64,000 nucleotides of DNA from a virus: IMG/VR virus record IMGVR_UViG_3300045988_135160; one strand, given 5' to 3'. The notes below the pieces were generated by a model. That model ran no database searches, was not told the origin of the DNA, and saw nothing but the letters and a program-made list of their open reading frames with translations. Shown in pieces: positions 7,301 through 57,929 of this stretch (positions are counted from its first letter, which is position 1; each line of letters starts with the position of its first letter). Position numbers and translations under genes: made by a program.

Positions 7301-8008
7301 GCTGCCGGCATAACCTCTATCCCGGAAGGAGAAGAGGTTTATGTAGAGGGAGATGAGGTTAATAGTATTATGACCGATATGGAATCAAGGTATGGTATAG
7401 ACACCATCAATCACTCGCATACGACTAAGGCTATAAGGGATCTTAACGGCGTATCAGGTTATAAAGTAGAATACGGCTTAACCTTTTTAACATACGATCC
7501 TTTTATTAGAATATCCAATCCAAGGAAAGAATCTAAGGCCGAGAAAGACGAACCTCGTATATCCGAAGAACCGCTTACTCACATATCAAGGGTAACAACC
7601 CCTTATTTCCTGTACGGCGGCGATGAAGCATATACATCTGTTCCGGCTAAGGTAGAACCTATACCGGAGAAGATAATGGGTCGTAATGGCATTAAATTTG
7701 GTATGAGTGTAGTCGAGTTAACCAAATTAGGGTACAAAAAAGCTGGTGGAAACTGGATATATAAATTCTATATGAACTCAGGTGTGTATGATTTGTATAA
7801 TATCAGTACCGGTGAAGCGTTTAGGGCAAAACCGGATCTTGGAGTTAAGATAAGTTCCAGCGCATTCATCCGTTCTTTATCTCAATCTGGTAGAAAAATA
7901 CAAAATATGATGAGTAGCATGAGCCAGGAAGAGATAGATAGGAATAAGAATCTCGTAGAAGGTTCTGATAATTCGGATTCGATAAATGAGTTAAATAAGG
8001 AGTGTTGA
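1367..8008 (+). CDS. giant 2213-aa protein, probably a virion structural, tape-measure-like or ejection protein
   Basis: Uninterrupted 6.6-kb ORF. Gly-rich hydrophobic segment (GGLGVGSLGNIGAKLGGRIGAKLAARQAANRGIG) typical of tape-measure/internal virion proteins. Long coiled-coil stretches and low-complexity Pro/Ala and Asp/Gly patches. No polymerase DxDGD motif seen. Confidence 0.75.
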   Translation: MADNNIDRYNPAAKTTYEDVARQRKLAEEENYTPATLPETTTPLVPNYMPGEGVYAQPKFPDYASRIAAAEYEEPYIAKEISNSYSEALARNSYRGATPAPPPLNPYGPKVSIRESHQMGNDGVWRTKYSNYIPGINNEDYYARRQSGWSKFWNGVGKFALKSALYGAQGVVSLPDKLINMASEGSYKAALNTNMDKFVGDLDQQIDMLLPHYYKKEVEDYNFGQKLFKDTGNFLWNDVLGNGMSFTVGAMISAYMTGGLGVGSLGNIGAKLGGRIGAKLAARQAANRGIGSLKSVFNDYVRKGVATGRNVGEAAKTMTLLATSAGFESSVEANSFMKQSESDFKDYYRKIYGRDPNAEEMAVFRNSNADVGSAIFAANMGIVGLSNWLLFGKYIGLGGKAIPGLEKRLNKHLFGLGTEVAKPGEMAIKITNPNIGQKIAGNVFNIMKRPVSEGLWEEGSQGAVQNTAEEYVKSRYDNVAMNGAVDVLDAISEGFKKQYTSKEGWTEIGIGAIIGSLFGMREGFFGVKEYSNSQILLERQVNEYNKASSNLNTAALNTLKKSMSLGPQVRSDAQSMTGKELDDAMFEKMSIDNQMGTLEDSAENFRQMIDMMPISEIAEANGMSLEEAKKYKDSIIDNYNNRLSDFRSAQSFAEDLIGDDSKIEFRKYVARNAFLGLQSESRMKDIASVIETLSGQPRVADALSTFSRLSDRARERAMAIRGIRSRIEELESEIEDLATRPRNVEGKDPQAESIQRKTKELESLRTNYNNSLSELSTLIGKEFSIEELVSKTESVLSSPLSPISSQDVIEAYDTLVAFDDYFNVKSRQEKKFTAKDKAMRSLVNEYRRSLMDYRNMNNFLSKMLDKRFLAEENRGFSKALSSLWSTPYKGDDKVPDFAEPNKVGEYDTDEVVDQAVSEGKISEDEAWTIKAFMHALDKVREDRMKEAEDNIKESPLTESVSDEDYEAAMDNPIMVPVVRQSIIDKLYTGNADLLTAREKDVYDKYKQDFDDYVSSLGDSPVNLIKSLSEKADRLTSPRSVYEENKAIIDMAKSNLEPDQRQELDDAISSYVDIMNRRDKGEKVDEDKLADSVFTIEDLGRVGNITDLLPYIEQNRIIDKGRISESTLSNFGEDDANIDSLVNELDESDNTPGANIDSAQNPETLMVRRISNDGNERYEIAGLRADKFISSIKSLVPIQISSETNANGTKRYSLNIGGETATIIELPYHARWSIDKESARVLNRYTDVSIQDVGNSYSLVYKRLDSDELVPYRTGVGFGENEVDKIDQEALSSLKKGDKVNLEIDVNDTYNQSLFAEYNDAVQSGDKKRIESAENKLVSNMVIKVMSGNRFVSVVKADTGGIDGISKIRRTAFNKWKKDAGRSATIGVGTHVVAQTLPGRPVFNMKVNGQGYGQVENLPITEKGAEKVSDVGYVLNGKVVLKNGSKYTGFPFAYSILNDKGNNYKNVRVPVVVIKGKNGLNYLFPVSLRSVESEEGQKWMSFIDMLLESGDSELLQMGQDDIQDLNAYLTKLGLDPASYQVSYLNPISGLRKAREAIEELSTVPDVVKWVEDGSRSVKDIVTSEVESGIDFEGEMFVAPKIRIQFGKSSSSPKSLIEDDLPFSDEGKTVTSKEYVDVYEEEMPEEGTILGTQPAPLAQPAPAAQAAQSLPGKKRTSRKNFSLMLNEIESHIEKEGLPSYANIFDFIARKIVGGDLRFLRERGNPKSLKEEMGLEPKGTVGDKISTPSKKGGKTLEEYVSWLRSQTDQVVVDYVGPRSDEQIISELKNFLKYINFVPSKALNYSLRVNGMDTLKEYGTKEEVEKMESDINSLVSKVLPTVDNKTVEDVSTAIKSNNLPAIWRPVESLDMTNEEKIEFLNNVADFLSGIPEYDAVVESIESESDNILNDGKEGSAEGGAVRAEEDGDKKGDGEGKGQSRTNVEVKGNVELPGSEEGRVDNYRKNGDKFSDIAEVTLWLLRRAAGITSIPEGEEVYVEGDEVNSIMTDMESRYGIDTINHSHTTKAIRDLNGVSGYKVEYGLTFLTYDPFIRISNPRKESKAEKDEPRISEEPLTHISRVTTPYFLYGGDEAYTSVPAKVEPIPEKIMGRNGIKFGMSVVELTKLGYKKAGGNWIYKFYMNSGVYDLYNISTGEAFRAKPDLGVKISSSAFIRSLSQSGRKIQNMMSSMSQEEIDRNKNLVEGSDNSDSINELNKEC

Positions 8009-8088
8009 GTATGAGAAGGAGATTTTTTAATGCTGCGGATAATTTCGTGGGAGGATGTTATAATAAGTTATCCAATGAAGATAGGTGA

Positions 8089-8112
8089 GGTGATTATATA
8101 CCACTTTACACC
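8089..8112. repeat. left 24-bp terminal inverted repeat / conserved 24-mer (reverse orientation)
   Basis: 23/24 match to the reverse complement of 9412-9435. The same 24-mer also occurs at 49288-49310 and 57552-57575. Confidence 0.7.
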
Positions 8113-8134
8113 AAAAGCGTAAAGTAATACATAT

Positions 8135-9358
8135 TTATACGGAAATCCGTACTGGGTTCCACCAAAACCCTCTACCTTCTGGTAACATCGTTACATCAAA
8201 GGATTCTTTTGCTGATTTTCTAATGATGTTAAAAGCACCATTGATATCAGCATTAATAGTCCTACCAAACGAGGTTTTAAACAATCCTCGTTTGGTCCTT
8301 CTTCCTTTGTAAGATTCATGTTTACAAATCCGTTCATTATCCAAAAAGCTACATTTTGAAGTATAAGATTCTTCAACAATCTTAACATTAATACCTTCTA
8401 ATGTTGCTTTATACGATATCATACTGATAAACGAATTAAAAGGAATAGATACAAAGTTCTGATTATTTCGTTTTCCGATATTGATCTCTTGTTTCCAGCA
8501 TTTGTTATGACCGATTATGATCGTATTAATACCATTGGAAACTACGTGATTAATCAATATCCTACTCGCTTTGTGAAGATAATCTTTGATCTTGTTATTT
8601 CTTTTGTTGGTTAATGACCTGATTTGTTTTGAAGTATGTTTATTATCTTTTAATTTAGATTTTAAGAATGCTAATCTTTTATTATAATATTGGTTGATAG
8701 ACTTTAGTGGTCTACCATTGATAATAAAACAAGAACCTGTGTTTGAAACACAAGAAGCTAAATTATCTAATCCTATGTCGATGCCAAGATAGTTCCCATT
8801 ATCGGACATAAGATCTTTTTCCTTCTTATTGTAAACTATTTCAAGAACAATATATCCATTCTTAGGAACGAATCTAAGTTGTTGAATATTTTGTTTATTG
8901 GTTCTTGTTGTAAAAGAAAACTGTTTTGGTAACTTAACAATACCTTGTTTTATCCATTTTTGAGAAAAAGCGATTGTTGTAAAAACAGCAGTAAACAAAC
9001 CATTTTTGTTAAGATACCCAGGCATTCTAACAAATTCAGAATACTCACCTCTATTCTTTTTATTTAAAAGATTGAAGAATGATCTAAAGTTTCTATCTAC
9101 CATCATCAACACTTGCTGAGCAACCGGTGTTGGTAAAGCACGATAGTCGACATCATTTTCTATTCTTAGTTTCTTTTCGAGAGAATAATAATTGAGATAT
9201 TTGTACTTTACAGTATTATCATCCTTGTATTGGAAATAGTGTTGTCTAACAACATACAATCCTTTGTTGTATAAGTTTTTACACTTATGCAATAGGTCTT
9301 GAAGCTCATTGTAATATATTGAACTTTGTTTGATTATATGTTGTTCAACTAATCTCAT
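8135..9358 (-). CDS. tnpB: TnpB (OrfB, IS605 family RNA-guided RuvC nuclease), copy 1
   Basis: RuvC-I LGIDIGLDNLA, RuvC-II VEESYTSKC, zinc finger CSFLDNERICKHESY, RuvC-III INADINGAFNI. Probable start is MRLVEQ (9358) rather than the track start 9397, by analogy with copy 2 (MRLVYKF). Confidence 0.85.
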   Translation of the reverse strand: MRLVEQHIIKQSSIYYNELQDLLHKCKNLYNKGLYVVRQHYFQYKDDNTVKYKYLNYYSLEKKLRIENDVDYRALPTPVAQQVLMMVDRNFRSFFNLLNKKNRGEYSEFVRMPGYLNKNGLFTAVFTTIAFSQKWIKQGIVKLPKQFSFTTRTNKQNIQQLRFVPKNGYIVLEIVYNKKEKDLMSDNGNYLGIDIGLDNLASCVSNTGSCFIINGRPLKSINQYYNKRLAFLKSKLKDNKHTSKQIRSLTNKRNNKIKDYLHKASRILINHVVSNGINTIIIGHNKCWKQEINIGKRNNQNFVSIPFNSFISMISYKATLEGINVKIVEESYTSKCSFLDNERICKHESYKGRRTKRGLFKTSFGRTINADINGAFNIIRKSAKESFDVTMLPEGRGFWWNPVRISV

Positions 9359-9411
9359 GACACAAATGTAGGAATTATTATTTATATAAAAAAACAATTT
9401 CTTATATTTGT

Positions 9412-9435
9412 GGTGTAAAGTTGTATATAATCACC
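9412..9435. repeat. right 24-bp terminal inverted repeat / conserved 24-mer GGTGTAAAGTTGTATATAATCACC
   Basis: Inverted partner of 8089-8112. Lies 14 nt upstream of the ATG at 9449. Confidence 0.7.
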
Positions 9436-9448
9436 AAAGTTAATTACA

Positions 9449-11707
9449 ATGGGTGTCAAATGTCAGATAGAAAAAAAGGAAAATGAAATAAAACGGGTTA
9501 AGGCTCCTAACGGGGAGCCTTCCGTTCTTTACGAAAGTGCTTTAAAAGTATTAGGAAACAGCGAGCGGGCTCTTCAGGTATGGGCTAAGGCTTACACTCC
9601 TGGTTTTTTGTCGTATTACGGTCATTGGAATAACCCGGCTCCAGGGGAGATATTTAATACCGATCCCAATGGCGAACCTCTTTTAGAAGACGTGCTGTCG
9701 TATATGAAGCGTCAGGCTTATTTTGCTGATCCTTTAACGGCTCAGGACATTAAGGATGTAAGGGATTTCCTTTTGTCTACTCATTATTTTTTCAATGCGT
9801 CTTCATTGTCTAATGCTATCCTCTTCGATTTTTATGTAGATGGCAGTTTGATACTGAATGAGCAGAAATTAAGGAGATCCGGTTTGTATGATGAAACAGA
9901 AATAAGTCGTATTTTATCCGATCCTTCTGTTTTAAACGAGGTTTTGACTTCCATGAGAAAGTTAATAGATTCTTCTATTAACGAACATGATAGGGAAAAA
10001 GATAATTATTTTATGTCTATTGACTATCAGTATGGTCCTATTGTTTACAAGGAGGGAGTGTTTAACCAATTTGGTAAAAAGGTACCATATAATCCTTCTG
10101 AGCTTTATTATGCTATGCGTAAAACAGTAGCCGGCATAAAAAACTTTTCTGAATTTTCATCTGCTTTTGAATCGTTGAGAAATTCCTATCCTGAACTGGT
10201 TGAGAAATTCGTTTCTGATAAAGAATTTGCCGAATCTATGTTTGATGAGTTCTCATCTACGAATAAGATTCCGGTAATAAACATAGAAGGGGATGATGTG
10301 GTAGAAGGCAAGAGAAGATCCTTGTCTAAGTTACAAGATCTGTCTTATTACAATCCTGGCAAAATAGAGTTCCTAAGAGCTCGTATATCAGCTTATTTAC
10401 ATAGGGCTAATGCCGACACCGAATCCGATTTAAGAAGCATGATATGGGATATAGAAGAGGCTTGTACGTGGTTTGGCATAGATATAATAGGGACATCGGA
10501 AACTTATGATGGCACAGAAGAATCTTTGAATAAGATAGATAATTTGATGCTGGATCTTGATATTTATGTGGCCAGGCATAATGATGTAAATTATGCTCCA
10601 ACGCTGGCATCTTCTATAGATGATGTTCTTGGTGATAGCACAGATTATTATTCTGAATTATTGCCGGAGTATATGGATAATTTGAATATCGTTTATTCTG
10701 AATCCAATATAGACCCAGTAGAAGCGTTTGAGAAACATTCATTGCTTAAGGTAGGAGATAATCTATATCAAAGGATCAGCAAAGATGATATTAACGAGAT
10801 GTATCAAATATCAACAGTGTTAGCCAAGCACAACCTAACTCATTTTTCTACTAAAATATATCCTGAATCTTGTTTTAAGAACGGCGTTTTGGATAAAGAG
10901 AAAGTACGGAACGTAGATAATAATACGCTCATGGCTTCCATTAAAAAATACGTCAGATCGTTCATGGATTCTCAGAACACGGAGGACATGATAATGACCA
11001 GGATGGCGTTTGGACACCCGGCGGTACTTGACGTTCCTTACGTGGATGTGGATCGGGAGTATAGTCGATACATGAACAAAAAACAAGATAGCGAAAACCC
11101 ATTATCCTTATTCGATTTATACCAATCTTACCTTGACAACAAACTCCATAAAACAAAATTATATGATAATGCCTATAAGTATCTTGACTTCAAACCTGGT
11201 CCATCTTTGGGTCTTATTTCTGATGATCCTGATATTTTGAAATCAATAGAATTATCTTTATCTGGAAAAGACAGGTTGATGTTGTTTGATTATAGCATGA
11301 CCAGTACCGACCCTTCTTTATCAGAATTGTTTTATTTGGAGAAGTATGACTCTTCGTATGCCGGGAATGATTTTGAACACTATTTTTACACCAGGCACCC
11401 GTATCTGTTAAAAGAAAAATCGGGCCCTAATATCGTAGAGCAAGATGGTGTTATAACAGCCGAAGGTATTTATGATAATTTTATAAGAGTAGGTAATAAG
11501 ATATGGTCTAAAGTAAGCGAGAGTAGTTCCGGCTCTATCTACCAAAATCTAACAGGAACCGAATCGGAGGTGAAATACGATTCTACTCAGAAGGCTAAGA
11601 CGGTAGAAACCGATTACGCTCCATACCAAAACAGATCTGGCTTGACGCAAGATATGACCGTAAGCAAGTCTGAATTGGATGATCTTAATAAATTGGAATG
11701 CAAATAA
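9449..11707 (+). CDS. hypothetical 752-aa protein; probable C-terminal body of an MRRRF-family gene split by the TnpB-1 insertion
   Basis: Long ORF with no recognisable motif. The in-frame fusion to the MRRRF mini-ORF at 8010 after removing the TnpB-1 element is an inference from the sequence. Confidence 0.7.
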   Translation: MGVKCQIEKKENEIKRVKAPNGEPSVLYESALKVLGNSERALQVWAKAYTPGFLSYYGHWNNPAPGEIFNTDPNGEPLLEDVLSYMKRQAYFADPLTAQDIKDVRDFLLSTHYFFNASSLSNAILFDFYVDGSLILNEQKLRRSGLYDETEISRILSDPSVLNEVLTSMRKLIDSSINEHDREKDNYFMSIDYQYGPIVYKEGVFNQFGKKVPYNPSELYYAMRKTVAGIKNFSEFSSAFESLRNSYPELVEKFVSDKEFAESMFDEFSSTNKIPVINIEGDDVVEGKRRSLSKLQDLSYYNPGKIEFLRARISAYLHRANADTESDLRSMIWDIEEACTWFGIDIIGTSETYDGTEESLNKIDNLMLDLDIYVARHNDVNYAPTLASSIDDVLGDSTDYYSELLPEYMDNLNIVYSESNIDPVEAFEKHSLLKVGDNLYQRISKDDINEMYQISTVLAKHNLTHFSTKIYPESCFKNGVLDKEKVRNVDNNTLMASIKKYVRSFMDSQNTEDMIMTRMAFGHPAVLDVPYVDVDREYSRYMNKKQDSENPLSLFDLYQSYLDNKLHKTKLYDNAYKYLDFKPGPSLGLISDDPDILKSIELSLSGKDRLMLFDYSMTSTDPSLSELFYLEKYDSSYAGNDFEHYFYTRHPYLLKEKSGPNIVEQDGVITAEGIYDNFIRVGNKIWSKVSESSSGSIYQNLTGTESEVKYDSTQKAKTVETDYAPYQNRSGLTQDMTVSKSELDDLNKLECK

Positions 11708-36298: not shown

Positions 36299-37558
36299 TT
36301 ATTCGTTATTATGTGTATTTGCTTTATATCCATATGATTGATCTACTTCAATAGAAGTCAATCCATGTCCTATATATTTTAATTTTTTATATGATATATT
36401 TTTCTCATTTTCCCCATCTATATCTTTTATTTTAAAACTACCAGAAAGTCTTCTTGCGTAAATAAATCGTTTTTCACCATAAAACATTACTTTATCAAAT
36501 AGTCTAAACCCAAATACCCTAAATGGTGATTGATTCATTCTTTTGATCCCTCCCTTTTGCATCTTCATTTTATGAATTTGCCTATTATGTCTCCGTGTGA
36601 GTTTCATCTTGAAATGATATCCAAGCCTTTTTGCTTTAAAATTCTCTGAGATAACAAATGCATCAGAAACATGGGACTTTTCGATTCTATGTTTTATCCG
36701 ATTATGTTTCGTTATATATCCAAATGTCATACTAACGTTTGGATATAATGACTTCAATTTATCGAATAACTTCCATTTCATGATTCCCATCGCGGCCGCA
36801 TCACGAAGTGAAGTTCCTCTTTTTACCTTCAATTTAATATTCCCCTTATGGTACTCCTTATGGCAAGTTTCACATAAAGTAATCAAATTAGAAGGTGAAT
36901 CTCCACCAGTCTTTCGCGATTCGATATGGTGGATATTAAGAATAGGATTTTTCGATTTTCCCTTACAATGCTGGCATTTGTGACCATCACGAAAAAGTAT
37001 GTATTCTCGAACATTCCAAAATCCAAGTTGCTCGCCTTGCTGGTATTCTTTTCCCAATATATCAGGATTCTTAATCTTTTGAGTATCAAACTGAGAAGTT
37101 TCTATAATTAATCTTGAAACAGGAAGGATAGAATGTATAAAACTGACAACCTTAATATGGGAATCAATTTTTTGACAAACAGATGGAGCTATCCATCCTT
37201 GGCGCTTCGACTTTATTCTGTTATTAAATCTCGGCTTTCTATACCTTATCCTATTCCTTCTCGCTTTCCTCAATTCTCTTCTTGTCGAAAGCAAATTAAT
37301 GATATCATTTCTCAGAATAACTTCACTTGCGTAAAGCTCCTTGCTTTTCGTCGTAGCTGATAGACCAACATGTTTAGTTCCAGCATCAACGCCTAACACA
37401 ATTTCCTGTTTGTAATCAGATGTGACGTACATTAATTTGATGGTAAACGGACATAAGTTGACAACAACTGCCTTTTTGTCTTTAAGCAGTCTTCTAACCT
37501 TACCATGCCTTGTTGTTGGCATCAAAGGTTTACCATCTATGTCTTGTACGTACACCAT
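36299..37558 (-). CDS. iscB: IscB RNA-guided nuclease (PLMP, split RuvC and HNH), copy 1
   Basis: N-terminal DGKPLMPTTRHGKVRRLLK (PLMP domain). RuvC-I LGVDAGTKHVGLSA. HNH CQHCKGKSKNPILNIHHIESRKTGGDSPSNLITLCETCHKEYH. RuvC-III SHVSDAFVI. Size of 419 aa is typical of IscB. Confidence 0.85.
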   Translation of the reverse strand: MVYVQDIDGKPLMPTTRHGKVRRLLKDKKAVVVNLCPFTIKLMYVTSDYKQEIVLGVDAGTKHVGLSATTKSKELYASEVILRNDIINLLSTRRELRKARRNRIRYRKPRFNNRIKSKRQGWIAPSVCQKIDSHIKVVSFIHSILPVSRLIIETSQFDTQKIKNPDILGKEYQQGEQLGFWNVREYILFRDGHKCQHCKGKSKNPILNIHHIESRKTGGDSPSNLITLCETCHKEYHKGNIKLKVKRGTSLRDAAAMGIMKWKLFDKLKSLYPNVSMTFGYITKHNRIKHRIEKSHVSDAFVISENFKAKRLGYHFKMKLTRRHNRQIHKMKMQKGGIKRMNQSPFRVFGFRLFDKVMFYGEKRFIYARRLSGSFKIKDIDGENEKNISYKKLKYIGHGLTSIEVDQSYGYKANTHNNE

Positions 37559-37810
37559 TTGTTACAAACTAATTTTTAATTAATAACTACTATTCGTAGT
37601 AAGTCAGATATATTTCAATCTGTTAGTACCCATCGCCAATGTTATTCAGAGGTTTCTTACAAGCAACACTGTATCCAAATACAAATACTGTTTAATCACC
37701 TGCCTTAGAGCCTGGAGCTTGGATAAACACTCCAGGGTAACTATACATTCTCCGATAACGTAGTGCTCGAAGCACTTAGGCTAATAACCGGCCAGTAAAA
37801 CTGGATATAC
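36377..37810 (-). mobile_element. non-autonomous IS200/IS605-like IscB element 1 (iscB plus upstream omega-RNA block; boundaries approximate)
   Basis: Similarity to copy 2 extends from about codon 394 (YKKLK) through the roughly 230-nt upstream conserved block, then stops. Confidence 0.45.
37559..37810 (-). ncRNA. putative IscB omega-RNA (guide at the 5' end, about 37791-37810)
   Basis: Non-coding block immediately 5' of iscB-1, conserved with the block 5' of iscB-2. Two hairpins show compensatory changes: CCTGGAG/CTCCAGG versus CTACGAA/TCCGTAG, and GTGCT/AGCAC versus GTGTT/AACAC. Confidence 0.55.
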
Positions 37811-37843
37811 AAAAAAGTAAAATTCTATTTGTCTTTTTGTATA

Positions 37844-38119
37844 TTATTTCGGAGATCTTGCATTTTTGTCACCTTTCGTATCCGACTTGGATCCCCTATT
37901 AGCTTTTACTGATTTATACCTAAGACCGTTCTTGGTATGAGAACAATCCTTGCCTTTCCTCCAGCCCTTGCCCTTCTTCTTGTCCGTTTCGTAGTTTTTA
38001 CGACCAAGCTCCCGGCGTTTGGCTTTCTGTTCCGGTCTGGCATTTATCTCCTTGTCCTTTTTAGCCTTTTTCTTCCTGGCTTCTGGATGAGTCCTGTAGT
38101 ACTCTGTTGATCTGCCCAT
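37844..38119 (-). CDS. highly basic Lys/Arg-rich small protein (91 aa)
   Basis: ORF with more than 35 percent K+R. Confidence 0.4.
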   Translation of the reverse strand: MGRSTEYYRTHPEARKKKAKKDKEINARPEQKAKRRELGRKNYETDKKKGKGWRKGKDCSHTKNGLRYKSVKANRGSKSDTKGDKNARSPK

Positions 38120-42340: not shown

Positions 42341-42827
42341 TCTTCTTCTCGCCTAATTTTTCAGCTCCCTTCTGAAGATCATATTTGAATACGTCAATGA
42401 TCTTCGTTTCAGCAATAGCTTCGCAATTCCAGTCGCCTAACGTGCCCTGCATGCCTTTAGTCAACACAGCTTCGGCATCCTTGGGATTGCCGGCCTGGAC
42501 ATACATATAGCATGGTGTTTTCTTTTCTTTACCTTTCTTTTCATCCAGTGTAATGTAATTCACCTTACACTTATACCAGTACTCAGCTTCTCCGTTGAAG
42601 AAGATTTCCGACACTTTAATAGGATTTATTTTAACAATGTCGAACACTTGAAATAAATCCTTGAAAATCTCTAAAGATCTTGATTCTGCCTCTGTATAAG
42701 ATAAGGCATCTACCAAATACTTTTCAGTTACCTTCTTTTTTTTGCCGTTCTCGATATTATCAATCTCGGCTTTTACTGTGATTTCAAACCAACGATTCAT
42801 GTCTATATTTTTATTCAAATTAATCAA
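42330..42827 (-). CDS. hypothetical protein (165 aa)
   Basis: ORF. Its start overlaps the iscB-2 stop. Confidence 0.45.
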   Translation of the reverse strand: MINLNKNIDMNRWFEITVKAEIDNIENGKKKKVTEKYLVDALSYTEAESRSLEIFKDLFQVFDIVKINPIKVSEIFFNGEAEYWYKCKVNYITLDEKKGKEKKTPCYMYVQAGNPKDAEAVLTKGMQGTLGDWNCEAIAETKIIDVFKYDLQKGAEKLGEKKSEE

Positions 42828-44050
42828 TCCATTTCCTTTTGTACCATAAAGCGTTTACACCTTGATAATTTCAATTTCTTGTATGTAATATCTCTTTGGT
42901 TTTTACCATCAATATCTCGAATATTAAAACTACCGGTTTTACGCCTTGCGAATATAAAATAATAACTGTTTTCAAACATAACCCTATCAAACAATCGGAA
43001 ACCAAAAACTTCAAAAGGAGATTGATTTGGTCTTTTTATCCCTCCTTTTGGAATCTTTTGTTTATGGATCTGACGATTATGTCTTCTTACTAATCTTACT
43101 TTATAATAATATCCTAACCTTATAGCATCAAAGTTTTTAGAAATAACAAATGCATCGAAAACATGAGATTTTTCAATACCATGTTTAATCCTATTGTATT
43201 TTGTAACATAACCGAAAGTCATAGAAACTCTGTTGTATTTAGACCTTAGTTCTTCATACAATCTCCATTTCATTATTCCCATTACGGCTGCGTCGCGAAG
43301 CGACGATCCCCGTTTGATCTTTAAATCTATATTACCTTTATGGTATTCTTTATGACAAGTTTCACATAAGGTAATAAGATTAGATGGGGAATCTCCACCT
43401 GTCTTTCGTGATTCAATATGATGAACATTCAATACTGGGTCTTTTGACTTTCCCTTACAATGCTGGCATTTATGTCCATCTCTTGCTAAAACATATTCCC
43501 TAACGTTCCAAAATCCAAGTTGATCACCCTCCTGATATTCTTTACCTGATATATTAGGATTGTTAATCTTTTGAGTATCAAATTGAGCTACTTCGATAAC
43601 AATACGAGATATTGGTAATATAGAACATACATTGTCAATAACACGAATATGGGCGTCTACTTTGTATTTCACCGAAGGTGCTACCCATCCCGGACGCTTA
43701 CTTTTTATTCTATTATCAAAACGAGGTTTTCTATATCTCAATCTATTTCGTCTTGATCTTCGTAGCTCCCTTCTGGTAGACAAAAGATCTACGATATCAT
43801 TTCTAAGGATAACTTCACTGCTGTAAAGTTCTTTGCTTTTCGTTGTAGCCGATAGACCAACATGTTTAGTACCAGCATCAACGCCTAACACAATTTCTTG
43901 TTTGTAATCAGATGTTACGTACATTAATTTGATGGTAAACGGACATAGGTTTACAACGATTGCCTTTTTGTCTTTAAGCAGTCTCCTAACCTTACCATGC
44001 CTTGTTGTAGGCATCATAGGTTTACCATTTATGTCTTGTACGTACACCAT
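42824..44050 (-). CDS. iscB: IscB RNA-guided nuclease, copy 2 (about 80 percent identical to copy 1)
   Basis: Same PLMP, RuvC and HNH motifs (MVYVQDINGKPMMPTTRHGKVRRLLK; CQHCKGKSKDPVLNVHHIESRKTGGDSPSNLITLCETCHKEYH). C-terminus diverges from copy 1 after YKKLK. Confidence 0.85.
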   Translation of the reverse strand: MVYVQDINGKPMMPTTRHGKVRRLLKDKKAIVVNLCPFTIKLMYVTSDYKQEIVLGVDAGTKHVGLSATTKSKELYSSEVILRNDIVDLLSTRRELRRSRRNRLRYRKPRFDNRIKSKRPGWVAPSVKYKVDAHIRVIDNVCSILPISRIVIEVAQFDTQKINNPNISGKEYQEGDQLGFWNVREYVLARDGHKCQHCKGKSKDPVLNVHHIESRKTGGDSPSNLITLCETCHKEYHKGNIDLKIKRGSSLRDAAVMGIMKWRLYEELRSKYNRVSMTFGYVTKYNRIKHGIEKSHVFDAFVISKNFDAIRLGYYYKVRLVRRHNRQIHKQKIPKGGIKRPNQSPFEVFGFRLFDRVMFENSYYFIFARRKTGSFNIRDIDGKNQRDITYKKLKLSRCKRFMVQKEMD

Positions 44051-44300
44051 ATCTACAAACGTTTTTAATGTTTATTCAACATAAGTCAGAGTGAAACTCT
44101 GTTAGTACCCATCGCCAATGTTATTTAAGGTTTTTTTTGTAAGCAACACTGTTCCTGAATACCAGAACTGTTTAATCACTTACCTTAGAGCTACGAACTT
44201 GGGCAAACATCCGTAGGTAACTATCTATTCTTAAATAACGTAGTGTTTGTTTCAACACTTAGGCTAATAATCGGAATAGCTTTTGGCTATTATGCATAAT
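42869..44300 (-). mobile_element. non-autonomous IS200/IS605-like IscB element 2 (boundaries approximate)
   Basis: Extent of nucleotide and protein similarity to element 1. Confidence 0.45.
44051..44300 (-). ncRNA. putative IscB omega-RNA, copy 2 (guide about 44281-44300)
   Basis: Conserved with 37559-37810. Compensatory stem changes support a structured RNA. Confidence 0.55.
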
Positions 44301-48992: not shown

Positions 48993-49287
48993 TTTATACT
49001 GGCTATGTTATAAAACATACGGATGTTATTTAATTTCATATTTTTCTTCTCTAACTTTGTTTTACTCAATCGAATCATATAGTCCCTTGTTTCGGACAAG
49101 ACGGTTGGGTAAAAGAGGTCTTTGATATAAGGTTTTACCCTAAAAAAATATTCGTTGGGTAAGTAAAATCAAAAACGTTTTGTTTAGTAAAAGAATCCGG
49201 TGATCTCACTTTCGAGCAACCGGTAGAGGGTATTGGTGATACCCAGTATGAAGTTTCATACAAATGTATATTGTTTTACGCTTTTTT

Positions 49288-49310
49288 GCGTAAAGTGGTG
49301 TATAATCACC
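49288..49310 (+). repeat. solo copy of the conserved 24-mer (GCGTAAAGTGGTGTATAATCACC) with an upstream hairpin
   Basis: Matches 9412-9435 and 57552-57575 at more than 20 of 24 positions. Preceded by TTTACGC-tttttt-GCGTAAA hairpin, as in the copy at 8084-8134. Confidence 0.6.
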
Positions 49311-56200: not shown

Positions 56201-56325
56201 AAGCTATTATTTTAGGTATATAATTACCTCATTAAATTTTTGAAGGTAGTTATATACAATATTATACCAACCATGTTGTAGAACATAAAGTAAAATAGTA
56301 TATATCTTATTTTAATCACGTAATT

Positions 56326-57558
56326 TTGTATCATAAAACTGATAAGGAAATGATTAAAGGTTACAAATATAGATTAGATCCTACACCGGAACAGATTGTC
56401 CAAATGGAGAAAACATTTGGATGTTGTAGGTATGTCTATAATTGGGCTCTTGATCTGAAAATTAAAACTTATCAGGGTGAAAAAAGATCTTTGTCAGCAG
56501 TTGATTTATGCAAGCAGCTAACATTACTCAAAAAAGATGAGAACCATCTTTGGCTAAATGAAGTATCTAATGAATGCTTGCAACAATCTATACGCTGTAT
56601 GGATAGTGCCTTCACCAAATTCTTTAGAGAACATACCGGATTTCCCAAATTCAAATCCAAACATAGGGATAAGAACGTTTTTAAGAATGTCAATTCTGTT
56701 AAGTTTGATTTTGAAAATAACAGAGTTAAGATTCCTATCATTGGTTGGGTAAAGTTTTTTGCCAATCGGTCCTTTGAAGGTGAGATTGGTACGATAACAA
56801 TATCTAAATCATCAACCGGTAAGTTTTATGCAAGTGTCTTAATAGATGACGGTATTCCTAATCCTGACAAATTTGCTATCAATTCCGATACAACAGTAGG
56901 AATTGATGTGGGAATTAAGGATTTCGCCGTCTTATCCAATGGGCAGGTTTTTAGTAATCCGAAGTATTTGGAATCTGTGCAGAAAAGATTAGGATGCTTG
57001 CAAAGAAGGTTTAGTCGCAAACATAAAGGAAGCAACCGATACAAGAAGGCAAAACATGATATTGCCGTTTGTCATGAACGGATTCGAAACCGTAGACAAG
57101 ATTTCTTACACAAGGTCAGTAAGAAGATAGTAAGTGAAAACCAAACTATTATCATCGAAGATCTTAATGTAGAAGGTATGTTGAAAAATCATTGCCTTGC
57201 TAAGGGTATTGCTTCTGCATCTTGGAGCGAGTTCTTCAGGATGCTGCAATATAAATCAGATTGGCGCGGTGTTAATTTAATTCGGATAGGTAGATTCGAG
57301 CCGAGTTCTAAGATGTGCGGATGTGGATACATACATCGTGATCTTAAGTTATCGGATCGAGTATGGACTTGTCCTGAATGTGGCGCCGTCAATGATCGTG
57401 ATTTACTTGCAGCGAATAACATTAAAAGATTTGGGTTAGAAAAGAAGAATCTTCTAACCCAAGAAAATATTAACAAGACACCGGTGGTGAACCGGGAGGG
57501 GGACGTGGAGTTGTCGGCGGTAGCCGGAGCTGTGAAGCGTCAAAATGTACTGGTGTAA
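56326..57558 (+). CDS. tnpB: TnpB (IS605 OrfB family), copy 3, from a different subfamily than copies 1 and 2
   Basis: N-terminal YRLDPTPEQ HTH. RuvC-I VGIDVGIKDFAVLSNG. RuvC-II IIIEDLNV. Zn finger CGCGYIHRDLKLSDRVWTCPECG. RuvC-III NDRDLLAANNI. Opposite strand to the surrounding genes. Confidence 0.85.
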   Translation: MYHKTDKEMIKGYKYRLDPTPEQIVQMEKTFGCCRYVYNWALDLKIKTYQGEKRSLSAVDLCKQLTLLKKDENHLWLNEVSNECLQQSIRCMDSAFTKFFREHTGFPKFKSKHRDKNVFKNVNSVKFDFENNRVKIPIIGWVKFFANRSFEGEIGTITISKSSTGKFYASVLIDDGIPNPDKFAINSDTTVGIDVGIKDFAVLSNGQVFSNPKYLESVQKRLGCLQRRFSRKHKGSNRYKKAKHDIAVCHERIRNRRQDFLHKVSKKIVSENQTIIIEDLNVEGMLKNHCLAKGIASASWSEFFRMLQYKSDWRGVNLIRIGRFEPSSKMCGCGYIHRDLKLSDRVWTCPECGAVNDRDLLAANNIKRFGLEKKNLLTQENINKTPVVNREGDVELSAVAGAVKRQNVLV

Positions 57559-57929
57559 ACTGGTATATAATCACCTTCTCTTATATCTTTATATTCTTCT
57601 GGTCGTTTTCTGTTACCGTCTTTTATATAATTTACCCACAGTCTATCTTCTATGCTCTTAATCGCATTCTCTATAGTAAATTCGTCGCTGACACACATTA
57701 AACACGAAGACCCTGTTTTCTTATGTGGTTTATATACCCTTGAAAAAGACCACATTTTTATCCTGTCGTATATATATCCGTTGTTTGGATAAACGAATCC
57801 TATCCGGCTGTCACCTTCTTTGGCATAAAATACACCTGGCTCCTTCCCGCCCTTTCTATATACTACGAATCCTTTTTCTTTTAGGATCTTAACCACTTTA
57901 TTTAATTTATTTTCTACGTTCATTTTCAT
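57540..57929 (-). CDS. hypothetical protein (129 aa); C-terminus encoded by the 24-mer
   Basis: ORF. The last codons (GDYIPVYTSTF) read through the reverse complement of the 24-mer and overlap the tnpB-3 3' end. Confidence 0.45.
   Translation of the reverse strand: MKMNVENKLNKVVKILKEKGFVVYRKGGKEPGVFYAKEGDSRIGFVYPNNGYIYDRIKMWSFSRVYKPHKKTGSSCLMCVSDEFTIENAIKSIEDRLWVNYIKDGNRKRPEEYKDIREGDYIPVYTSTF
57552..57575 (+). repeat. conserved 24-mer GGTGTAAACTGGTATATAATCACC overlapping the tnpB-3 stop codon
   Basis: Near-identical to 9412-9435 and to the reverse complement of 8089-8112. A partial direct copy, GGTATATAATTACCTC, lies at 56215-56230 upstream of tnpB-3. Confidence 0.65.

Follow-up and report, generated by a model that had tools for sequence, protein, structure and literature searches.

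The tnpB-1 locus

We analysed a 64,000-nucleotide stretch of viral DNA (IMG/VR virus record IMGVR_UViG_3300045988_135160; this whole stretch is called the window below), in which a mobile element carrying a single gene, tnpB-1, lies between a 2213-amino-acid (aa) open reading frame (ORF) and a gene for a 752-aa protein (Table 1). The element is bounded by 24-bp terminal inverted repeats (TIRs): the right-end copy, GGTGATTATATACCACTTTACACC, adjoins the 3' end of tnpB, and the inverse copy at the left end differs from it by one mismatch, a pairing that arose in 0 of 100 shuffled controls. A scan of the element for ORFs found none besides tnpB, and no serine recombinase. Several points of a first-pass annotation of this DNA, made from the letters alone, were borne out, namely the coordinates and single mismatch of the repeats, the orientation of tnpB, the disruption of a gene of the 'MRRRF' family by a TnpB-only element, and the remark that inverted repeats are atypical for IS200/IS605 elements. 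The 25-codon ORF that it described beside the element is also present, with its ATG at 8011 rather than 8010 and its stop at 8086-8088 rather than 8085-8087. This ORF is what remains of a gene whose product begins MRRRFF: it consists of 24 native codons, one fused codon (AGG) and the TGA, and homology to the intact allele found in relatives stops at 8083, so that positions 8011-8083 are the opening 73 nt of the MRRRFF gene.

Table 1. Features of the tnpB-1 locus and of related elements in the window
Feature	Position	Strand	Remarks
Upstream ORF, 2213 aa	1367-8008	+	TGA stop at 8006-8008
Remnant of the MRRRFF gene, MRRRFFNAADNFVGGCYNKLSNEDR*	8011..8088	+	ATG 8011, TGA 8086-8088
Predicted guide segment, 5'-TCACCTATCTTCATTGGATA	8069..8088	-	Flank directly 3' of the right end; predicted from TnpB biology
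GGTGA, 5-bp tandem duplication of the right-end terminus	8084..8088	.	TCACC on the element strand
Non-autonomous element with IS1595-type inverted ends	8089..9435	-	1347 bp; tnpB the sole gene
Right-end TIR	8089..8112	-	At the tnpB 3' end; 3' end of the predicted omegaRNA scaffold
Predicted omegaRNA (right-end RNA, reRNA) scaffold	8089..8320	-	Fold and covariation
tnpB-1, 407 aa	8135..9358	-	IS607 lineage
Left-end TIR	9412..9435	-	
What is left of the intergenic hairpin spacer (its final 13 nt), AAAGTTAATTACA	9436..9448	+	
752-aa gene, intact and independent	9449..11707	+	Function unassigned; own ATG in relatives
Solo right-end remnant, tnpB-1 type	~49195..49310	+	Final ~115 nt, TIR included; 24-mer with 3 mismatches
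Second element of the same kind	56245..57575	+	1331 bp; same type of inverted ends; tnpB-2 at 56350-57558

Target-site duplications and the origin of the ends

At least 579 IMG/VR stretches encode close relatives of TnpB-1, and the best 80 of these (89-97% identity) yielded 47 distinct junction pairs. An 8-bp target-site duplication was detected in 18 of the 47 pairs and was perfect in 15. In related epsilon crAss-like phages the family is multicopy, its members being spread over many different sites. Locus L191 shows a simple insertion in the MRRRFF gene, with TAAGTTAT on either side of the element, and the empty allele of locus L006 has this octamer once. Elements of the tnpB-2 family generate 8-bp duplications too, although none is kept around the copy in the window, which has the left-end flank AAA|T and in which the tnpB-2 stop codon lies inside the right-end repeat.

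We then scanned one genome per prokaryotic species for the pattern GGTRATTATATACNNNTTTAC, which corresponds to the first 21 nt of the TIR, and retrieved at least 120 bacterial loci, mostly in Bacteroidota. Among the loci listed were representatives of Chryseobacterium, Flavobacterium, Aquimarina, Parabacteroides, Rikenella and Alistipes as well as many metagenome-assembled genomes of Bacteroidales. The pattern itself was fixed by the search, and the independent evidence lies in inverted pairing, 8-bp duplications and an enclosed transposase. Among the matches listed, 42 of 63 inverted pairs were flanked by 8-bp duplications and the majority bound miniature inverted-repeat transposable elements (MITEs) of 110-260 bp, while the protein encoded between bacterial pairs spaced 1.85-3.3 kb apart is about 300 aa long and matches Pfam DDE_Tnp_IS1595 (E 2e-29 and 3e-41). 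The phage TIRs share about 20-22 of 24 positions with those of transposase-bearing elements of Flavobacterium, Aquimarina, Mucilaginibacter and Bacteroidales, and RhuM or KilA-N genes travel as passengers in some of the bacterial elements. TnpB was found at none of the bacterial TIR loci among the 120 matches listed. Conversely, no IS1595 transposase was found in the element, in the window, in about 300 phage loci or in the crAss-like records of the phage collection. Lacking a DDE transposase, the element can at most be a non-autonomous member of IS1595, and the shared ends and 8-bp duplications, together with the absence of a transposase from the phage sequences examined, lead us to regard the phage elements as non-autonomous IS1595-type elements with tnpB as cargo.

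TnpB and its predicted guide RNA

TnpB-1 matches Pfam PF01385 (OrfB_IS605, E 1.5e-22) and PF07282 (the Cas12f1-like TNB domain, E 1.4e-12) and belongs to PHROG 506; a sequence search of the PDB with TnpB-1 returned nothing at E <= 1e-3. In an alignment of 26 homologues (50-95% identity), D194, E330 and D371 are invariant and E329 nearly so, the position of the canonical RuvC-II glutamate is an invariant Gly283 (IIIGHN), and the zinc finger is lost. Judged by this alignment, TnpB-1 keeps the RuvC acidic triad in the alternative-glutamate arrangement reported from the IS607 lineage of TnpBs in which the Fanzors originated (PMC10711439). Its nearest relatives outside the family were found in Lak megaphages (46% identity), a Bacteroides phage (41%) and Staphylococcus phages, and the IS607 copies of Helicobacter phages that adjoin a resolvase are 37-38% identical. 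A closer homologue, P0117 (57% identity), directly follows a Resolvase gene in five contigs and is without IS1595-type ends, which are present around homologues of 57-60% identity in other phages. TnpB-2 is only distantly related to TnpB-1 (23% identity over 145 aa) and is canonical, with a helix-turn-helix, the glutamate in IIIEDL and a CxxC zinc finger.

The final 232 nt of the element, on the tnpB strand, fold with z = -6.8, and across 32 copies compensatory changes were observed at five pairs, some of them in the terminal hairpin. This hairpin forms between 8120-8133 and 8095-8108, that is, between the right-end TIR and a subterminal inverted TIR-like copy. The solo remnant at about 49195-49310 retains the terminal hairpins, again with compensatory changes; it is possibly a stand-alone guide RNA gene or a relic of deletion. 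The right-end fold is what an omegaRNA scaffold would be predicted to look like, and the flank directly beyond it would then supply the guide. At the Rfam gathering threshold no family, and no group I intron, was found in 8000-9500, and elsewhere in the window two HEARO RNAs were the only matches.

A flanking motif that follows the nuclease

Of the 18 duplication-bearing sites of the tnpB-1 family, 15 have the motif TWAT (W, A or T) at positions -3 to +1, where +1 is the opening base of the octamer and -3 to -1 are the bases ahead of it; taken singly, T occurs at -3 in 17 of 18 sites, A at -1 in 16 of 18 and T at +1 in all 18. The mirrored positions are unconstrained, with neither a mirrored A at position 8 nor a mirrored TWA. 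Bacterial elements with the same ends show TWAT in 4 of 84 orientation-cases (Fisher 8e-12), and the background in the window is 1.8%. When all distinct left-end flanks were counted, the tnpB-1 family had TWAT in 23 of 39 and AAAT in one, against 16 of 24 with AAAT and two with TWAT in the tnpB-2 family (Fisher 1.4e-8 between families). In the empty site the motif stands directly 5' of the sequence that follows the right end after insertion, which is the would-be guide. An asymmetric motif that tracks the nuclease and not the ends fits what a target-adjacent motif (TAM) would produce.

The disrupted gene and its neighbours in related phages

The relatives of the locus comprise the human gut phage csAssE-Sib (OR575929.1, 151 kb), an epsilon crAss-like phage (PMC11054128) that is 91% identical to the window, and 80 IMG/VR contigs that encode the 752-aa protein. 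The protein is 93-99% identical across the 80 IMG/VR loci, and in the closest relatives 99% over residues 1-752. Each of the 81 relatives opens this gene with an ATG of its own, preceded by an in-frame stop that lies 21-60 nt upstream; the first ORF terminates ahead of that ATG in 79 of 79. The gene order of csAssE-Sib is a structural gene, a separate 192-aa gene (MRRRY...), a spacer and the 752-aa gene starting MGVKCQ; on TnpB, the paper describing this phage does no more than note two genes of 18% identity (PMC11054128).

The window element sits in a hypervariable cassette slot between the 2213-aa structural gene and the 752-aa gene. In 39 of 80 loci (L006 and 38 further relatives) the slot holds one complete 175-aa gene, MRRRFFNAADNFVGGCYNKLSNED-IKRLGGKRPY...LYKSVL*, followed by the hairpin spacer TAATTAACTTTGCAAAAAAGTTAATTACA; 17 loci have the MRRRY gene alone, nine have both the MRRRFF and the MRRRY genes, and several have other TnpB-like ORFs. 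The last group includes L005, L025, L063 and similar loci (gap of about 1960 bp) as well as L033, L043 and L076, with TnpB-like ORFs of 358 aa on the plus strand and of 379 aa on the minus strand, the latter starting MISYKYNIYH. This makes the slot a hotspot for several OMEGA-type elements (OMEGA standing for obligate mobile element-guided activity).

Set against the intact allele, the window has lost 471 bp, namely MRRRFF codons 25-175 and part of the spacer. With this much of gene and spacer gone, excision of the element cannot restore the MRRRFF gene, and the reversible on/off switch suggested in the first-pass annotation does not exist. The lesson for annotation is an intact 752-aa gene beside a 25-codon ORF that is no more than a dead remnant, and for the phage the outcome is the irreversible loss of a dispensable accessory gene. 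Read-through or recoding of the TGA was considered and dropped, the 2213-aa and 2140-aa ORFs being read in the standard code. Searches of Pfam and PHROGs returned no family for the MRRRFF, MRRRY, MRRRF (19896 and 20518) or 752-aa proteins, so the label 'structural gene' is an assumption from position.

Small genes of structural modules that open with MRRR(F/Y) occur at 8011, 19896 and 20518 in the window and at 4497 in L001, and they are exchanged or stacked among relatives. Their sequences diverge wholly after the start; the N-terminus said earlier to be common to the genes at 8011, 19896 and 20518 does begin MRRRF in each case, but the likeness ends after these five residues. The common start may represent a shared docking or signal motif. 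Inside the left end of the element, TATATTTG (9403-9410, plus strand) points outward to the 752-aa gene, 39 nt before its ATG. We take this octamer to fit the Bacteroidetes -7 promoter consensus TAnnTTTG, and it might be a source of transcription across the insertion.

Junction dynamics and a proposed history

The window shares its element, and a left-end junction in the spacer, with two IMG/VR contigs (L049/L434 and L158/L127), yet these three cases have three different right-end junctions within the MRRRFF gene. In the intact allele each of the three begins with T and directly follows TTA or TAA, from which we conclude that these junctions and ordinary insertions owe their sites to one and the same process. 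A search of IMG/VR for the left-end/spacer junction retrieved no contigs beyond these two, and no exact match to the window's own contig is present there. Short duplications beside the right end recur as well: an extra TCACC follows it in the window and, twice, in L164, and an extra 8-bp TAATCACC follows it in L161 and is the sole difference between L278 and L303. The motif is also present in the right-end terminus, ...TATAA|TCACC, and these duplications would fit a proposed course in which an element inserts into its own end and the tandem then collapses.

The reading that we consider likely is that of a non-autonomous IS1595-type element that has TnpB as its cargo, is mobilised in trans and probably spreads through RNA-guided homing. 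During infection, an IS1595-type transposase supplied by the host bacterium would move the element in trans. The first insertion would have been into the spacer hairpin at TAA|TTAACTTT, after which an adjacent deletion on the right-end side, arising through intramolecular transposition or through recombination with a second direct copy, would have joined the right end to TTA|TATCTTCA within the MRRRFF gene; a later self-targeted event would have added the 5-bp TCACC duplication. TnpB, guided by an omegaRNA read from the right end into the flank, would cut element-free alleles that carry TWA(T) beside a match to the guide, and recombination in replicating or co-infecting phage genomes would copy the element in.

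Several observations weigh against this account. The predicted guide, as it now stands, opens with the duplicated TCACC and would no longer match the intact MRRRFF allele. The activity of TnpB-1 is assumed from conservation, and its canonical RuvC-II glutamate and zinc finger are missing. Among the bacterial matches listed there was no partner transposase with near-identical TIRs in a known host of this phage. A search of IMG/VR for the primary insertion (right end followed by TTAACTTT) gave nine unrelated chance matches and no true case. Since the duplication is kept in just 18 of 47 junction pairs, rearrangement beside the element ends must be frequent. Finally, TWAT could be the target preference of the partner transposase and not a TAM.

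Weighing of alternative explanations

The last of these points can be developed into an explanation in its own right, in which the element and its mobilisation in trans are the same, TWA|T reflects the preference of the partner transposase, and TnpB is a passive cargo or has a role other than homing. The right-end terminus contains TAA|TCACC, duplications consistent with insertion there recur, and the motif marks the right-end junctions of the deletion derivatives too, all of which would suit a transposase with such a preference. Target preferences of DDE transposases are normally two-fold symmetric, however, whereas this motif is asymmetric; moreover, it is as rare as noted above in bacterial elements with these TIRs, and it differs between the two TnpB cargos despite near-identical TIRs. 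We therefore hold this explanation to be unlikely, while giving it real weight. A more conventional view would make the element an ordinary solo-TnpB insertion sequence (IS) of the IS200/IS605 (IS1341-type) or IS607 kind, served in trans by a Y1 or serine TnpA, with inverted repeats that are incidental. TnpB-1 does fall in the IS607 lineage, and solo TnpBs of those families are common (PMC10691335), but the families are without TIRs or duplications (PMC13565253, PMC6188088), whereas 24-bp TIRs and 8-bp duplications characterize both tnpB families here and the IS607 relative P0117 is without these TIRs. This makes an ordinary IS very improbable.

Two further explanations treat the flanking sequences as parts of one gene. 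The first-pass annotation read the element as interrupting a single long gene, running from MRRRF through the 752-aa ORF; precise excision of the element would restore that gene and so serve as an on/off switch. An in-frame join through D-R-K-L-I-T-M does exist, but it needs a deletion of 8085-9435 (1351 nt) and not the 8084-9435 that was given; the junction as written out, ...AATGAAGATAG|AAAGTTAATT..., corresponds to the former and reads ...N-E-D-R-K-L-I-T-M-G-V-K.... The join is no evidence for a single gene, because its chance probability over the 13-nt linker is about 0.28 and its boundaries are not those of the element. Removal at the true boundaries either leaves the TGA stop in place (exact removal of the inverted-repeat-bounded unit, 8089-9435, 1347 nt) or shifts the frame (removal of the element with the 5-bp terminal duplication, 8084-9435). 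An uninterrupted homologue of 8010-11707, which the annotation itself had named as the way to check the idea, was sought among the 81 relatives and no fused ORF was found; the stops and starts described above separate the two genes throughout, and the intact MRRRFF gene has its own stop after 175 aa. The native start of the 752-aa gene in these relatives is an observation that the annotation had specified beforehand as refuting its idea. A long interrupted gene is accordingly refuted by the relatives and extremely unlikely. Least credible of all is a self-splicing, IStron-like intron that would rejoin the flanking coding sequence in RNA: fusions of TnpB elements with group I introns have been described (PMC13565253), but Rfam gave no match in 8000-9500, tnpB is antisense to the flanking genes, and no relative has the two flanking coding sequences as a single gene.

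Further mobile elements

Two full-length HEARO RNAs (Rfam RF02033) were identified on the minus strand of the window, at 37622-37847 (100.9 bits) and 44101-44293 (113.1 bits), each just upstream of an ORF of 408-419 aa for an HNH endonuclease (PHROG 119; 36299-37558 and 42824-44050, both on the minus strand). On sequence grounds these loci are two IscB/IsrB-type OMEGA elements, carried alongside the two TnpB elements by the same phage. In the tnpB-2 family, the flanks of the copy at L265 are inverted repeats of each other (ccaaatac... / ...gtatttgg), a pattern expected for the inversion product of an intramolecular transposition. L435 (GCA_949386655.1, labelled Parabacteroides goldsteinii) has a tnpB-2-like gene next to a tnpB-1-like one of 90% identity, together with these TIRs, a possible hint at the host; we did not accept it as host evidence, as the contig is only 4.3 kb long and is probably phage DNA binned with a bacterial assembly.

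Relation to known systems

TnpB is usually discussed as the partner of scarless transposons, either of the single-strand (IS200/IS605) or of the serine-recombinase (IS607) kind. Its association with DDE cut-and-paste transposition is regarded as rare in prokaryotes, and as the step from which the eukaryotic Fanzors arose. A catalogue of 2023 covers TnpBs located inside DDE transposons whose ends are symmetrical, as well as solo TnpBs with ends of this kind (Altae-Tran et al., PMC10691335), and a 2026 review names ISL2, IS630 and IS1031 as DDE families with TnpB (PMC13565253). The phage elements resemble these in having TnpB between symmetrical inverted ends, with its 3' end less than 250 bp from the transposon end, and the solo forms in being presumed to be mobilised in trans; they differ in their IS1595-type ends, which are not among the families named, in their crAss-like phage carrier and in the geometry of duplication and putative TAM documented here. 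In the literature we found no text that links TnpB to IS1595-type ends or describes these elements in crAss-like phages, a comparison that sets aside the DDE-1 to DDE-6 set of the PNAS census. With the ISs and MITEs of the IS1595 family they share TIRs, the 8-bp target-site duplication and the existence, in bacteria, of non-autonomous derivatives and passenger genes, but they differ in being without a transposase, in their TnpB cargo, in residing in phages and in the asymmetric TWA|T context.

The nuclease has its own affinities. TnpB-1 is like the IS607 TnpBs of ISXfa1 and Helicobacter pylori IS607 in its lineage and in an alternative RuvC-II glutamate just upstream of a degenerate zinc-finger site, and its predicted RNA is like IS607 reRNAs in having a fixed first right-flanking nucleotide (here T), which in IS607 is absorbed into the scaffold (PMC10711439). 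The phage element is nevertheless unlike IS607 in having no serine recombinase but TIRs and 8-bp duplications, and in the loss of the zinc finger. The IS1341-type solo TnpBs of IS200/IS605 likewise have TnpB as the sole gene and an omegaRNA predicted at its 3' end; those elements, however, have neither TIRs nor duplication, and their single-strand transposition places them 3' of a tetra- or pentanucleotide. The closest analogy is the capture of IS607-type nucleases by eukaryotic cut-and-paste transposons, as in Fanzor2*/Fanzor1, where an IS607-lineage nuclease was taken up by a DDE transposon with TIRs and target-site duplications (PMC10711439), and a Fanzor-only, non-autonomous element in a Spodoptera frugiperda ascovirus offers a further nuclease-only copy in a virus genome (PMC10711439). 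The phage case differs from these in being prokaryotic (phage and Bacteroidota), in having D-Phi-G and not DPG in RuvC-I, and in representing an independent capture outside the Fanzor clade.

Implications

These elements provide a multicopy and evidently active example of a TnpB with DDE-type ends in abundant human-gut phages, with clean duplications, with autonomous and MITE relatives in bacteria, and with two different TnpB cargos that each have their own flanking motif. They make it possible to test how an RNA-guided nuclease coexists with a transposase that makes duplications, what sets the TAM, and whether such elements drive the turnover of cassettes in the structural modules of phages. 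A bolder idea, which we put forward tentatively and rate as less likely than not, is that in crAss-like phages the ends of IS1595-type DDE transposons captured TnpBs of the IS607 lineage on more than one occasion, as a prokaryotic parallel to the Fanzors, and that the nuclease imposes its own TAM on where copies persist or land; in its strongest version, TAM recognition would steer the target choice of the transposase. If this were true, each insertion with an 8-bp duplication would create an empty-site allele that can be cut with the element's own guide, and the elements would act as an RNA-guided gene drive in phage populations that erases or replaces neighbouring accessory cassettes.

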